Of a stretch of 64,000 bases of DNA, positions 37,993 through 44,866 are shown piece after piece. Numbering within the stretch: the stretch's first letter is position 1; each line of letters starts with the position of its first letter. Below the pieces are notes generated by a model. It did no database searches. It had not been told where the DNA came from and saw nothing but the letters and a program-made list of their open reading frames with translations. The stretch is from the NCBI GenBank assembly GCA_951406725.2, contig OX597814.1:128216001-128280000 (forward strand), read 5' to 3'. Source of the DNA: Octopus vulgaris (Eukaryota). Position numbers and translations under genes: made by a program.

Positions 37993-39575
37993 ATGATAAA
38001 TGATATTGTAGGTATATACATTCTATCTCATTTTAATAATAAATTTCCAGATATTAAAGGAAGACTGTATAGAGATGATGAGCTGTTATTGATTAACAGT
38101 GTATCAAATAGGAAATTAGACTTATATAAGAAAAAATTGCATAGTATTTTTAAAAGATTTGGTTTATCCTTCTGTTGAAAATGAACAAGATTTTGTTAAT
38201 TATTTAGATGTTAATCTGAATCTTGTTGCTGATAAATGTGGCCCATATCATAAACCAAACAATAATTTGAAAAATATTAACTTTAATAGTAATCATTCTA
38301 AAGCAATTACACAAACTTTAGTTGATAATATTTTGAGGTATGTTTAACATTTTTCTACTAATGAGGAAATTATAAACAATAATGAAGAATATTATAATGA
38401 GGTCCTTAAAAGAGTGGGATATATGCATAGGATTGTATAATGTAATAAAAATAAAGACTATAAAAAATATTCTTATAATAATGATAAATCAATAAACACC
38501 GAATCTGTAGATCTAATAGTAGTGATGTGAGCAATAAAATTAAAATTTGTAAATCTCATAAAAATGTAAATAGTAATAAGGTTGATGAGGTAATTAATAA
38601 ATTAAACACTTCAGAATCTATAGATAACCAAAGTAAGAGCAGAAGGAAATATAGTGTAAATGCATGTTCTAAAATCAATACTAATAATGTAGATACACTA
38701 AACCGGTCTTCTAATAATATTCATGTTATTGATAATAAGAATAATAGTAATAGTAGCAGTAGGAATAAGAAAAAGTGTAGTAATTATAATATTCTGTATG
38801 AAAATGGACTTAAGTTTAAGACTAAAAAGTACACCCAATATGCAGGTTTTGATACACTTAATACTGTTACTTCTATAAATGAAAAAAAACATTTGGTTTA
38901 TTGGTTTATTATTCTTTATGCTAAACAAATAAAAACTAATTTGGTTAAGCTTTTTAAAGATCTATATCTAAACATTTTAATAAAGAAAATAATTATAATA
39001 AAATAAATAATAATGAAAAGATCAGAATTGGCTTTTCAGTATCTAAAAATTTGTTTAGAATTATCTCTTTAATTAATAACAAAAATATTAGACATATTTT
39101 ATAGTAATAGAAATAATAATAATTCTATTCCTGATAATTATTTTCGCTAGAACTTGTGATTGTAGATTTAAGGATAAATGTTATTTCAATAACTTTTGTA
39201 TGCAAAATAACCTTGCATATAGATGTAGAGTTGAATCTGAAGGGGAAAATTATTTTTACATTGGGTCAACTGAAAATTTTATTCAAAGACACATTACAAA
39301 CCATAAATATACTTTTAGGAACAGGGATAGAGCGAACAGCATCAGTTCAAGTAAATTTATATGGAAGTTAAAGGATAGTGTGAAATTGTACAACATTAAA
39401 TGGCAAATACTTAATCATGCTAGATCTTATAAAATTGTAGATAATAGATGTAACCTATGTGTGGCTGAAATATATAAAATTTTAACATAAAAAAAGAAGC
39501 TTCTTAATAACAGACAGGAAGTGGTTTATCTAGTAAAGACTCTTCTAAACATGTGCTTAGAAAATTTTATTAAAT
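37993..39575 (+). mobile_element. Decayed 5'-truncated Penelope-like retroelement (RT + GIY-YIG, Naiad-like)
   Basis: GRLYRDD, VNYLDVNLNL, YHKPNN..SNH, CDCRFKDKC..C, YFYIGSTE..NHKYTF, KFIWKLK..IKWQIL, CNLCVAE; frameshifted. Confidence 0.88.
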
Positions 39576-40167
39576 GTATTATTTCAAGGATTATAATAAA
39601 TAATTTTTTTTATTTATTTTGAATATATGTATATGAATGTATGTATGTGCATGTATTTCTGTGTGTAAGTATATATGTATGTGCATGTGTATTTATATAT
39701 GTGTGTGCAGGTGTGTATATGTTTATGCAATGAGTTGGCAGAAATGTTAATGAGGAGGGCGAAATGCCTAGTGGTATTTCGTCTGTCTTTTCGTTCTGAG
39801 TTCACATTCCACCGAGGCCTACTTTACCTTCGGTATATTTCAGGTGCCAGTGCCGCTGGACTGGTTCCAATGCAGGTGGCACATAAAAAGCACCATTTGA
39901 GCGTGACCATTGCCAGTACCACCTGACTGTCCCTCGTGCCGGTGGCATGTAAAAGCAACCACTACATTCACGGAGTGGTTGGCATTAGGAAGGGCGTCCA
40001 GCTGTAGAAACTCTGCCAGATCAGATTGGAGTCTGGTGCAGCCATCTGGTTCACCAGACCTCAGTCAAATCGTCCAACCCATGCTAGCATGGAAAGCAGA
40101 CATTAATCGATGATGATGATGATGATGATGATATATATATATGTATCCGTGTGTGTGTGTGTGTGTG

Positions 40168-40350: not shown

Positions 40351-41098
40351 TAGCTATATGACACACGAACCTGCGTCCATTACAACCTTCGAAGGTTGTA
40401 ATGGACGCAGGTTCGTGTGTCATATAGCTAGCTAGAGGTGATGGCCTCTTGGAGCTAATCAGCGACAGCTTTAGTCTTATGTTTATAGACTGCCATATTA
40501 GTATGGCGATAACTATTAATATCCAGTAACGTTGCTGTAATCTCCTTTAGAGAGACTTAGTAATTTTAATATTTCTATCATTGAAAACAAGTGGATGTAT
40601 TCCACTGTAACTAGGTAAATAAAATCTTCGAACAGACGGTCAGTAGCGACACCTGCTGGTTCTGACTACGCTGCATTGATAAAGGGCAACAACCCTGAAA
40701 CATGTCTGCAGATGTCTGACTAGCAAGGTGAAGCGGCTGACCTCCCCTGTTCGAAGGTTGTAATGGACGCAGGTTCATGTGTCATATAGCTAGCTAGAGG
40801 CGATGGCCTCTTGAAGCTAATCAGTGACAGCTTTAGTCTTATGTTTATAGACTGCCAATATTAGTATGGCGATAACTATTAATATCCAGTAACGCTGCCA
40901 TAATCTCCTTTAGAGAGACATAGTAATTTTAATATGACACACGAACCTGCGTCCATTACAACCTTCGAAGGTTGTAATGGACGCAGGTTCGTGTGTCATA
41001 TAGCTAGCTAGAGGCGATGGCCTCTTGGAGCTAATCAGCGATAGCTTTAGTCTTATGTTTATAGACTGCCATATTAGTGTGGCGATAACTATTAATAT
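40351..41098 (+). repeat. Partial tandem array (362-nt period) with two perfect palindromes and a hammerhead-like motif
   Basis: ttcgaaggttgtaatggacgcagg starts at 40388, 40750, 40964; palindromes 40351-40430 and 40932-41001. Confidence 0.92.
40671..40711 (+). ncRNA. Minimal type I hammerhead motif with two core substitutions
   Basis: ctgca TTGATAA aggg-caacaa-ccct GAAA cat GTC tgcag; stems I and II perfect, stem III acatgt palindromic; core differs from CTGATGA at 2 positions. Confidence 0.68.
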
Positions 41099-41440
41099 AT
41101 ACACATACATATATATCTATATGTCAAGCTTCTTTCAGTTTCCATCTACCAAATCTATCAATTAAGAAAAATGTACCAAGCTTTAAAAATGGGTACTCAG
41201 ATTGATTTGTTTGACTAGGCTCTTCAATGCAGTTCCCCAGCATGGCCACAAACCAATGACTGAAATAAATATAAAATAAATAAATAAATGAAAAGGAACA
41301 AAATCTTATTTAAAAGAATGATATTTTGTCTTGAATTGCTACTTCTATCATCAAATATTTCAGAGTGGTGCTCCAGTATGACCACAGCCACATAGCTGAA
41401 ACGAATAAAAGAATACCAACAAAACTCTTATTATACTTAC

Positions 41441-41557
41441 TCTGAAGAGCTTCAGAAGCCCCGACTATCTTGAATTCAAGCCAGCCAAACCTTCGTACAA
41501 CAAGTGTAGCCAAGCAGATATTTAATGGAACAAGTATGGAGGCTATAATGAGCCGAA

Positions 41558-41558
<1 letters not shown>
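41441..41558 (-). CDS. TM-protein exon: VRLIIASILVPLNICLATLVVRRFGWLEFKIVGASEALQ
   Basis: Acceptor (att)n-cag, donor AGA|gtaagt; 118 bp, phase 0 to 1; visible in ORF 41310..41708. Confidence 0.93.
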
Positions 41559-41622
<64 letters not shown>

Positions 41623-41663
41623 GTGATAATATTAATAATAATAGTGATAATAATAATATTAAT

Positions 41664-41959
41664 AACAACTCGAGGTAACTCGAATGTGGAATCTAAAAAC
41701 AGAAACAATTCCTATCATAGTAGACGCATTAGGTATGATGAAAAAAAATATTCAGACAAATACATGACAAAAACACCAGGACTTACAAATATATATAACA
41801 TACAGAAAATTGCACTACTGGGCACTGCACACATCCTACGCAAAATACTTTCAATACAGTAACCATAAGAGCATCACCACAAACCACAGCACATACCCAA
41901 GGCACACAGAGCTGTGCTTCATTGTGAAGTGAAAGCACGCTATAAAAATAAAACTACTA

Positions 41960-41995: not shown

Positions 41996-43390
41996 TTTGG
42001 GCCTAGTGCCTAGAAAAGAATATCTGATATAAAAATTTTTTTTTTGTTTTAGATTAAATAAATGTATTGTAAGCTACATACATATTTTAGATATTATAAT
42101 AATAAATTGAAGTATAATATTTATGAAAGGTTTAACCCTTCAATTGAAAAACACAGTTTCCGTTTCAATCTATTTTGAAAATAGCAAAAAATTTAATATA
42201 ACAAATTTGCCATTATTAAACTTTAGCATTTAAATATGTCATTTCTGGTCCAATTGTCCTACCTGTTCTATGCTCAAAACAGCCAGATCTGGCTTCTCAT
42301 GCCTACCCTACAACGTCCTTCTCAATATAAACAGTCACAGCATCAAAATCTTGAAGCTACAAGATAATACATGATTAACTCAAGATAATATGAATAAATA
42401 AGCATTACATTTGACAGAGTATCTGAATTCTAGAGGGTTAAAAGAAGAATTTTGCATCATAAAACCTGCAGCAGTTTCTGGAGGGTTGGTATTAAGAGTT
42501 AAGGTCCAGTATGTTGTTTTAAAACACATCGTTTGGGGCAGCAGATTGTCAGAATAAGTAGAGCTTCTGATAAAATGTATTAGTCTATTTAGTTACATCA
42601 TCATCATCATCATCGTTTAACGTCTGCTTTCCATGCTAGCATGGGTTTGATGGTTTGACTGAGGGCTGGCGAACCAGATGGCTGCACCAGGCTCCAGTCT
42701 TGATCTGGCAGAGTTTCTACAGCTGGATGCCCTTCCTAACGCCAACCACTCCGAGAGTGTAATGGGTGCTTTTACGTGCCACCGGCACGGGGACCAATCA
42801 GGCGGTACTGGCAACAACCTCGCTCGAATCTTTTTACACATGCCAATGGCACAGGTGCCAGTAAGGCGAAGCTGGTAATGATCCCACTCGAATGGTGCCT
42901 CTTACATGCCACCGGCACGGAAGCCAGTTAGCTGCTCTGGCAACAATCACACTTGGATGGTGCTCTTAGCACCCTACTAGCACAGGGCACAAGTGCCAGT
43001 AAGGCAAAGCTGGCAACGATCACACTCGAATGGCGCCTTTTATGTGCCACTGGCACGGAAGCCGATTAGCCGCTCTGTCAACGATCACGCTTGTATGGTG
43101 CTTGTGCCCGTCATCGAATTTCACTTTAATTTTGATTTTGATTTTGATTTCAACCTTTTATATTTTAAATTCAAATCTTGATGCAATTCTACCTTTCATC
43201 TTTCCAAATCAATAAAGTAGTCGCAGTCAAGTACAATTGATTTATACAACTGATTATTCCCACTTGAACAGTCGTGGCTTTATGCCTAAGAAATTAGTAT
43301 GAAGTGTTGATAACATTTATTTTCTTGCTTAACATCCACCTACCCCATTTCTTAGCCCTTCTTGTCACTAGCCCTCACCTGTTCCCCTAT

Positions 43391-43676: not shown

Positions 43677-44317
43677 ACCTGTTCCCCTATGATAGACATA
43701 TTTTGGGTGGAAGACGAGTGATGAACACTCTTTGCATGACAGTAATATTTATTTACAACTGTCACTCAATGTCAAGATAAAGAGACACTAACATATGTGC
43801 ACACACATGCTTGTGCACATGCATGCACACACACACACACACGCACACATGATAGGCTTCTTTCAGTTTTCTTCTACCAAATCCACTCACAAGGCTTTAG
43901 TCAACCCGGGGCTATAGTAGAAGACACTTTCCCAAGGTGCCACACGATGGGATTGAATCCAGAACCATGTGGTTGGGAAGCCCTGTTTAAATATTGTTTT
44001 TATCTTTTCTTTTCTACTCTAGGCACAAGGCCCAACATTTTTGAGGAGAGGGCCAGTTGATTAGATCAACCCCAGTGTGCAACTGGTACTAAATTTATCA
44101 ACCACCCCCCACCAAATAAAAAGGATGAAAGGCAAAGTCGACCTTGGCAGAATTTAAACTCAGAACATAAAGACAGATGAAATACCACTAGGCATTTTGC
44201 CCAGCATGCTAACGTTTCTGCCAGCTCACTGCCTTCGCCCTGTTAATATATTATCAGCAGAACAAAATATGAATTATTTAAAGATAAACACTAGGAAGAA
44301 AATTCTTTACAACTTAC

Positions 44318-44460
44318 CAATTTAACTGTTTCTAAATTCTTCGTTATGCTGGCTTGCACAATACAGTAGATCAGAATAACAACCATTGCAGCAACCAAAG
44401 CTAGCAGTTCATAGGCTCGTTCTCTAAGGAGACCGTGAATGGTATAAAACACACAGAATC
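44318..44460 (-). CDS. TM-protein exon: (G)FCVFYTIHGLLRERAYELLALVAAMVVILIYCIVQASITKNLETVKL
   Basis: Acceptor tttctttcag, donor TTG|gtaagt; 143 bp, phase 1 to 0, matches previous exon. Confidence 0.93.
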
Positions 44461-44750
44461 CTGAAAGAAAGGACTACATTGGTTACATTTTTTTCGGATT
44501 TTTACCTTTTTGAAACAATAATTTATTTTAAACACTTGGAAATATGACCAACAGACCAGTCTAGTAATATATACCATTGTCAAATCTTACCTCAAATAAA
44601 TCCTTAAGCTTTTAATTATTGAATCTTCAGGTTCCAAGTTCTTAACCAAAATATGACATATTACACTTTTACTTTTTTAGTCGTTTCAGTCATTTGACTG
44701 TGGCCATGCTGGAGCATCACCTTTATTCGAGCAAATCGACCCCAGTGTAA

Positions 44751-44866
44751 TTGTAATTCCGAAAGTGATTGAAAAATAAAAACTTTTACCTTATATCCTA
44801 GACCCTGCAGGGTCTAGGATAATTAAGGTAAAAGTTTTTATTTTTCAATCACTTTCGGAATTACAA
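44751..44866. repeat. Loopless near-perfect palindrome centred on CTGCAG
   Basis: ttgtaattccgaaagtgattg..tagaccctg|cagggtcta..caatcactttcggaattacaa; one small indel. Confidence 0.95.

Follow-up and report, generated by a model that had tools for sequence, protein, structure and literature searches.

Most of the window, i.e. the whole stretch of 64,000 nucleotides of Octopus vulgaris DNA analysed here, is occupied by a multi-exon DUF7789 gene on the minus strand (4788-53166), whose exon at 44315-44464 shares 98% identity with a DUF7789 protein of Octopus. The insertion at 40351-41098 is read on the plus strand and follows the exon at 41424-41558 at a distance of 326 bp. Since exons of this minus-strand gene are distributed across the window, the insertion sits in an intron, and its hammerhead motif has the antisense orientation relative to the gene and would therefore not cut the DUF7789 pre-mRNA. 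Two copies of a common interspersed repeat (86-91%), inverted relative to each other, are found on both sides of the insertion (39895-40127 and 42596-42829), a 65-nt subrepeat follows at 42808-43096, and a fragment adjoining a (TAA)n tract is located at 41660-41870, the translation of which appears to resemble the C-terminus of R4/Dong-type LINEs.

From left to right the insertion consists of inverted unit 43-1, unit 1-362, unit 1-185, inverted unit 38-1 and unit 1-135; apart from the palindromes, which have no orientation, all its features are given for the plus strand. The full 362-nt unit (40388-40749) belongs to subfamily A and differs at 5 positions from the majority of 30 copies. The second pass (unit 1-185, 40750-40935) is 95.2% identical to it and stops within an AT-rich stretch slightly before the 194 end of the family, and the third segment (unit 1-135, 40964-41098; about 98% identity) terminates exactly at the family's 135 end. 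These repeats had already been recognized in a preliminary description and are real, with the first partial copy ending at 40935 instead of 40934. The 59 nt between the two fixed 3' ends of the family, unit 135 (40522) and unit 194 (40581), form a "tail" at 40523-40581. The insertion contains a single hammerhead and shows no target-site duplication. Both perfect palindromes reported before are present: one of 80 bp (40351-40430) pivots on TTCGAA at 40388-40393, the other of 70 bp (40932-41001) pivots on TTCGAA at 40964-40969 and is entered via an ATAT overlap at 40932-40935, which is the microhomology that had been noticed at this junction. A second TTCGAA region (unit 236-245, 40623-40632) is predicted to pair with unit 1-10. 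TA-rich runs aside, these two palindromes are the longest of the window and the next one has 28 bp; a perfect 28-bp palindrome is located between two short direct repeats at 44794-44821.

A search of the octopus genome with the unit yielded 2816 first-look candidates, with full-length matches of 94-100% among the 40 scored, and the whole family accounts for over 1,500 exact motif matches. The locus sample of 154 records, reduced to 138 without 16 duplicates, is made up of the 30 best full-length matches, 60 loci found by the hammerhead motif and a remainder found by a 3'-side motif. On average the copies diverge by 2.2% from the majority sequence. Subfamily B is about 85% identical (124 motif matches, obtained with a pattern in which U3-A8 was fixed) and subfamily C 86% (1268 matches on a motif outside the core), and the unit length of 362 nt is kept in A and C. 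The unit encodes no ORF; matches to proteins of Penelope-like elements (PLEs) were found in 8 of 216 locus records, 3 of which represent the remnant of this window, and those inspected are separate from the arms. Sequencing runs containing words of the unit carry four organism labels and come from nine studies, with no RNA run among those listed. As predicted, the unit is multicopy and also occurs in tandem, namely in a 2.6-unit arm (L004) and in a 5.5-mer, each with two or more hammerheads. The 5.5-mer is a subfamily C insertion (L219-L222; G000:C1, about 8.133-8.136 Mb) whose first base is unit 1, and it is a good candidate source locus for cleavage tests. The copies are dispersed and show no LTR structure. 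Judged by its testable sequence features, the family is a dispersed, protein-free, multicopy non-LTR retrozyme, in agreement with the earlier retrozyme-like reading of a multicopy, ORF-less unit with a type I hammerhead motif. In the freely accessible literature we found no report of this 362-nt family, and none in which the one-of-each-end rule described below is given as a count. Furthermore, the words "ribozyme" and "retrozyme" do not appear in the accessible text of an octopus repeat paper (PMC13282606). The U3-A8 variant and one-ended tails are already known separately.

The hammerhead motif at 40671-40711 has perfect stems and two core changes, just as previously described. Helix I is CTGCA/TGCAG and is extended by a long predicted stem (40640-40741; z -3.6 for 40640-40760), the core reads TTGATAA with U3 at 40676 and A8 at 40681, helix II is AGGG/CCCT with the loop CAACAA, and these are followed by GAAA, the palindromic helix III ACATGT (40700-40705) and C17 at 40706, so that the predicted cut falls at 40706/40707, which corresponds to unit 319/320. 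The motif has a Watson-Crick 3-8 pair, G5 A6 N7 A9, G12 A13 A14, A15.1-U16.1 and H17, as in type I hammerheads, and lacks in subfamily A the G10.1-C11.1 pair, which is usual in hammerheads, not obligatory. Here this first pair of helix II is A-U, a third departure that is absent from the preliminary description; it is usually G-C (PMC4209133). The 362-nt unit folds better than shuffled sequences (z -6.0, 0 of 100), the 52-nt hammerhead motif alone does not (z -1.3).

It had been expected that a consensus of the family would restore CTGATGA, which is not the case: the genome motif search gave 202 exact copies of the U3-A8 motif (UUGAUAA) and 0 of its canonical C3-G8 counterpart. All aligned passes have U3 (137 of 137) and A8 (139 of 139), some of the loci having been picked on this very motif. 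In subfamily C, U3-A8 was found in all 100 listed of 1111 matches to a pattern that permitted C3 or G8. The two core changes are one compensatory U3-A8 pair and not decay. This is in line with the finding that U3-A8 occurs naturally as a covariation of C3-G8 and that ribozymes of this kind show activity in vitro (PMC3088659); the variant has also been described in PLE-related motifs of Schistosoma (PMC4209133). Searches based on CUGANGA would overlook well over a thousand hammerhead motifs in the octopus genome. Position 7 varies across the subfamilies (U, A, C), helix III differs among them and is nevertheless always palindromic (ACAUGU, ACUAGU, ACGCGU), helix I shows a two-sided change from G-C to A-U, and the helix II base pair is A-U in A, mostly G-U in B and G-C in C. 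Cells changed on both sides number 30 compared with 11 in shuffles (0 of 500), a control that ignores relatedness, with the cells representing few events, and related sequences may beat shuffles without any structure. Because helix III is short and palindromic, the hammerhead is expected to work as a dimer (PMC4209133), and two cofolded copies are predicted to pair via this helix. The subfamily A ribozyme may cut weakly because of the A-U base of helix II and the 2-bp helix III; of nine predicted frog retrozyme dimers only one was cleaved (10.64898/2026.07.22.740005).

As a further explanation, the locus could be an artefact of the assembly, or a degenerate satellite whose hammerhead no longer works. 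In its favour, the four palindrome arms contain 0 changes in 162 nt, where about 3.6 would be expected at the family divergence of 2.2%, and none of the 21 matches of an Rfam scan at E<=5 belongs to a hammerhead family. However, the three direct copies carry independent differences, several of them at CpG, the TTCGAA-centred join is also found at 5 other loci on five contigs with imperfect arms, and the core variant is fixed and compensatory; we consider this explanation highly improbable. Contigs of 4 sequencing runs, none of which extends over the left junction of the insertion, bear neither way on the palindromes. The 15 changes of the insertion all lie outside the arms 40351-40393 and 40932-40969, and the unmutated state of the arms may be due to chance or to between-arm repair.

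The template from which the copies were made is reflected in the distribution of their ends. In the 3'-side sample of 80 arms the stops are spread fairly evenly, the predicted cut site is crossed by 39 of the 39 arms reaching unit 321, more than one unit is present in 11 of the 80 arms, and among these 3'-anchored arms no pile-up of ends was found at the predicted cut site. The units of the 5.5-mer differ from each other by 0-4 bases, compared with 14 differences to one other insertion. From the crossings, the arms longer than one unit and the 5.5-mer it follows that a cut linear monomer was not the main template. The sequences fit both a circle and an uncut multimer, and the template would be one of the two, which supports the earlier idea of a circular or multimeric RNA origin insofar as the RNA was longer than one unit or circular. 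The variants common to successive passes comprise 45 common haplotypes and 2 rare ones, and about 1 rare variant is expected by chance. The same family and the same PLE-type insertion might also be explained by linear transcripts that read through a small number of tandem master loci and stay uncut, with a weak or protein-assisted hammerhead and circles being unneeded. Crossing of the cut site suits uncut RNA just as well, the shared variants are nearly all common haplotypes, tandem arrays reach 5.5 units, and a lizard PLE used mainly uncut RNA as substrate in vitro (PMC11167929). On the other hand, a long master array is absent among the 40 scored candidates and the loci examined, the helices and U3-A8 are kept across subfamilies that are about 86% identical, the unit length is constant at 362 in A and C, and related repeats of mussel, coral and axolotl form circles (PMC7229834). 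We regard an uncut linear template as unlikely.

The 3' ends of the family are strikingly regular: the 57 simple copies terminate near unit 135 in 25 cases, near unit 194 in 29 and elsewhere in 3. Head-to-head arrangements were found at 81 of 138 loci (47 of 74 in the 3'-anchored sample). An irregular end occurs in 26 of the 81, including the insertion at 40351-41098; both outer ends are regular in 55, and in 51 of these one end is 135 and the other 194 (p 2e-11 versus independent choice). At typical loci neither arm was copied from the other, since each arm holds sequence that is missing in the other one. The two arms of one insertion share diagnostic variants in 42 cases (8 expected) and differ in 12 (81 expected), and the overlap at the arm joins, as read from BLAST ends, is mostly 2-4 nt. 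We infer that unit 135 and 194 are reverse-transcription start sites and that priming took place from two ends on one RNA type. Such likely two-ended priming would also account for the inverted arrangement of more than half of the sampled copies. Most ends adjoin TA repeats, with TATATA located within 20 nt of an end in 115 of 137 loci as a raw count, and a duplication-like match is present at 24 of 137 loci compared with 1-10 in controls; clean duplications of 10-14 bp are seen at targets other than microsatellites. By eye, 5' ends seemed to cluster strongly at unit 1, but this hot spot was discarded as the 3'-anchored stop rate of 0.12-0.14 per 20 nt is close to that elsewhere. Taken as a set, two 3' ends with one tail, an inverted truncated copy and an AT-rich or (TA)n target are what is seen in PLE-mobilised sequences: an inverted truncated copy with a tail at one end has been described for PLE insertions (PMC8557442), and in vitro a PLE extended both strands and started reverse transcription at two internal sites (PMC11167929).

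Two of the five other TTCGAA palindromes are regular 135/194 pairs in which both arms stop at unit 1, the remaining three have one short arm, and at a further locus the pivot is a self-complementary word at unit 41. As the TTCGAA pivot recurs (5 loci) and one more locus has the unit-41 pivot, the palindrome represents a special case in which the family join falls on a self-complementary word. No excess of near-palindromic joins is seen in the family as a whole (9 of 83 versus 8.6 expected by chance). Snap-back of the cDNA, as suggested in the preliminary description, is therefore reasonable for the two short arms at 40351-41098 only and does not hold as a family-wide mechanism, because most inversions consist of two separately templated arms. 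The simplest reading of this locus is a single insertion during which the cDNA folded back twice and returned through ATAT. Alternatively, its palindromes could be ordinary two-arm joins at TTCGAA, or the left 167 bp could have been duplicated at the DNA level after insertion, and we give this possibility considerable weight without preferring it. It is in agreement with the 98.2% match between 40932-41098 and 40356-40522, with the full 135/194 arms joined at TTCGAA in the two loci mentioned above and with the lack of enrichment of near-palindromic joins. Against it stand the third segment terminating precisely at the family's 135 end and the short arms stopping at 43 and 38, off the regular ends, and the three direct segments have the unit-94 subfamily variant but no private change in common, as expected if they were born together. 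A fold-back of the short arms at TTCGAA followed by a return to the RNA through ATAT is the reading we slightly favour.

The preliminary description placed a PLE reverse transcriptase remnant about 0.8 kb from the insertion. An old, broken Hydra-type PLE remnant does exist at 37996-39475 on the plus strand, as a neighbour outside the element; its nearest part is the GIY-YIG endonuclease (39146-39475, about 0.9 kb away) and the reverse transcriptase pieces are located farther off at 37996-38437. As a partner of the retrozyme this remnant was rejected, because its nearest relatives do not exceed 75% identity and are broken for the most part, and similarity of these sequences to the unit is limited to AT-rich words. 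In the genome, 150 of 6136 GIY-YIG candidates were scored. One of the families found is represented by 14 ORFs of 781 aa that are 98.9% identical and contain RVT_1 and GIY-YIG; a DKG motif, a CX2-5CxxC linker and, C-terminally, a GIY-YIG domain are present, which are features listed in PMC8557442, and by these motifs this young PLE would be of Neptune or Nematis type. Its sequences suggest that it was likely active recently. Its hammerhead contains UUGAUAA and GAAACAUGU, as in subfamily A, and U3-A8 with ACATGT occurs in all 100 listed of 607 hammerhead matches. The copies have (TA)n ends, which either carry a tail of roughly 37 nt or lack it. Among the 23 loci examined, several of which had been picked because they form inverted pairs, both ends were identified for 9 head-to-head copies, and all 9 have exactly one tail. 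Members of this family (L282-L296, e.g. L284:1842-4184) have a minimal U3-A8 hammerhead, tandem repeats in the 3' region and an apparent upstream ORF. Outside the core the unit shows no similarity to the Neptune-type pLTR, as 130 and 134 of 200 shuffles score as high, and the tail lengths differ, with 59 nt in the 362-nt family and about 37 nt in the PLE. As no homology above shuffles exists outside the core, the Neptune-type partner remains a candidate.

The mobilising enzyme might instead come from another PLE, either the young Hydra-type family or one outside the sample, with the common U3-A8 core being a coincidence or a trace of older ancestry. The Hydra-type ORFs of 970-980 aa are about 99% identical (with RWK, DKT and CxCX5C), their copies have (TA)n ends and occur inverted, pLTR similarity to the Neptune-type family is missing, and the scored candidates are a small share of all GIY-YIG candidates. 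Against this, the Hydra-type hammerhead has a C3-G8 core and a different layout, whereas the rare core, helix III and the one-tail rule are common to the Neptune-type family and the unit; we think a different mobiliser rather doubtful. The Hydra-type family (L197-L199, e.g. L197:2026-4965) is further characterized by an Asn-rich linker and a long helix II. In the sampled Hydra- and Neptune-type families the unit has neither homology to a pLTR nor continuity with a PLE ORF, as would be seen for a solo pLTR. Animal retrozymes have been argued to derive from PLE pLTRs, with no mollusc among the sampled animals in the accessible part of that report (10.64898/2026.07.22.740005).

We return to a Neptune-type partner and assume that the locus is probably one insertion of a U3-A8 hammerhead repeat family with predicted dimer self-cleavage, the RNA of which was likely circularised and likely copied into (TA)n by a Neptune-type PLE. 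Multi-unit copies would be transcribed and cut by paired hammerheads and the monomers ligated to circles, a step that seems plausible. There is good reason to assume that the PLE protein would then cut both strands of an AT-rich target and that each DNA end would prime a cDNA at 135 or 194. With similar confidence, the two cDNAs would be joined by short microhomology, giving a palindrome if the stops of both fall on a self-complementary word, for example TTCGAA. Supply of the enzyme by the Neptune-type family is the assumption towards which we lean narrowly. The full combination, i.e. a retrozyme matched to an autonomous partner, with circular U3-A8 RNA copied by the Neptune-type PLE, strict one-of-each-site priming and palindromes as meeting points of cDNAs, is put forward only tentatively. 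The locus at 40351-41098 is an ordinary member of the family that is unusually folded.

In comparison to known systems, the family shares with metazoan non-LTR retrozymes (PMC7229834; 10.64898/2026.07.22.740005) a unit of a few hundred nt (350-390 in mussel), the absence of an ORF, one type I hammerhead per unit with a short palindromic helix III, partial-tandem or tandem copies and a strongly folded unit. It differs from them by U3-A8 in every subfamily and by mostly dispersed copies of less than 1.5 units, and the twin fixed 3' ends, the (TA)n targeting and the frequent head-to-head copies are not described for retrozymes in the accessible parts of these two reports. Circles have been demonstrated for the repeats in PMC7229834, whereas those of the octopus family are putative. 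Penelope-like elements (PMC8557442; PMC11167929) are likewise truncated at the 5' end, form partial tandems, contain an inverted truncated copy, bear a tail at one end only, target (TA)n and have two internal starts, but the octopus unit has no RT-endonuclease ORF, a tail of 59 nt instead of 30-40, and a repeat unit that is the entire element. The compensatory 3-8 swap is identical to that in other U3-A8 hammerheads (PMC3088659), including the Cercyon PLE of Schistosoma (PMC4209133). Unlike the Schistosoma cases, which are heterogeneous, mostly single motifs found by PLE homology (PMC4209133), the octopus U3-A8 is part of an extended-helix-I hammerhead within a retrozyme and is common to a co-resident Neptune-type PLE. 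For animal retrozymes the mobilising enzyme has been proposed from co-occurrence and pLTR similarity, and the origin of inverted, one-tailed Penelope-type insertions is stated as open (PMC7229834; PMC8557442; 10.64898/2026.07.22.740005). Since the octopus family offers a 362-nt template with two exact start sites, a strong pairing rule and a candidate enzyme whose ORFs are intact, both questions are testable by an existing type of assay (PMC11167929).

The arrangement of the octopus arms also invites comparison with LINE-1 elements. In LINE-1 twin priming both target ends prime cDNA, which results in a 5' inversion joined by microhomology; in the octopus family, by comparison, the two presumed priming sites do not vary and are separated by 59 nt, and the template regions of the arms overlap. 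Retrozyme and PLE copies are adjacent in several cases (L013/L291, L139/L249 and L201), with the copies sharing a TA-rich tract in at least two of them, as expected under a common target. A hammerhead pair 3.9 kb apart (L031) was considered as a possible full PLE and turned out to represent separate insertions, with an interval that contains no PLE ORF. At L249:3577-9001, a long tandem array with a unit of roughly 66 nt akin to the interspersed repeat flanking our insertion adjoins a Hydra-type fragment and a retrozyme copy.
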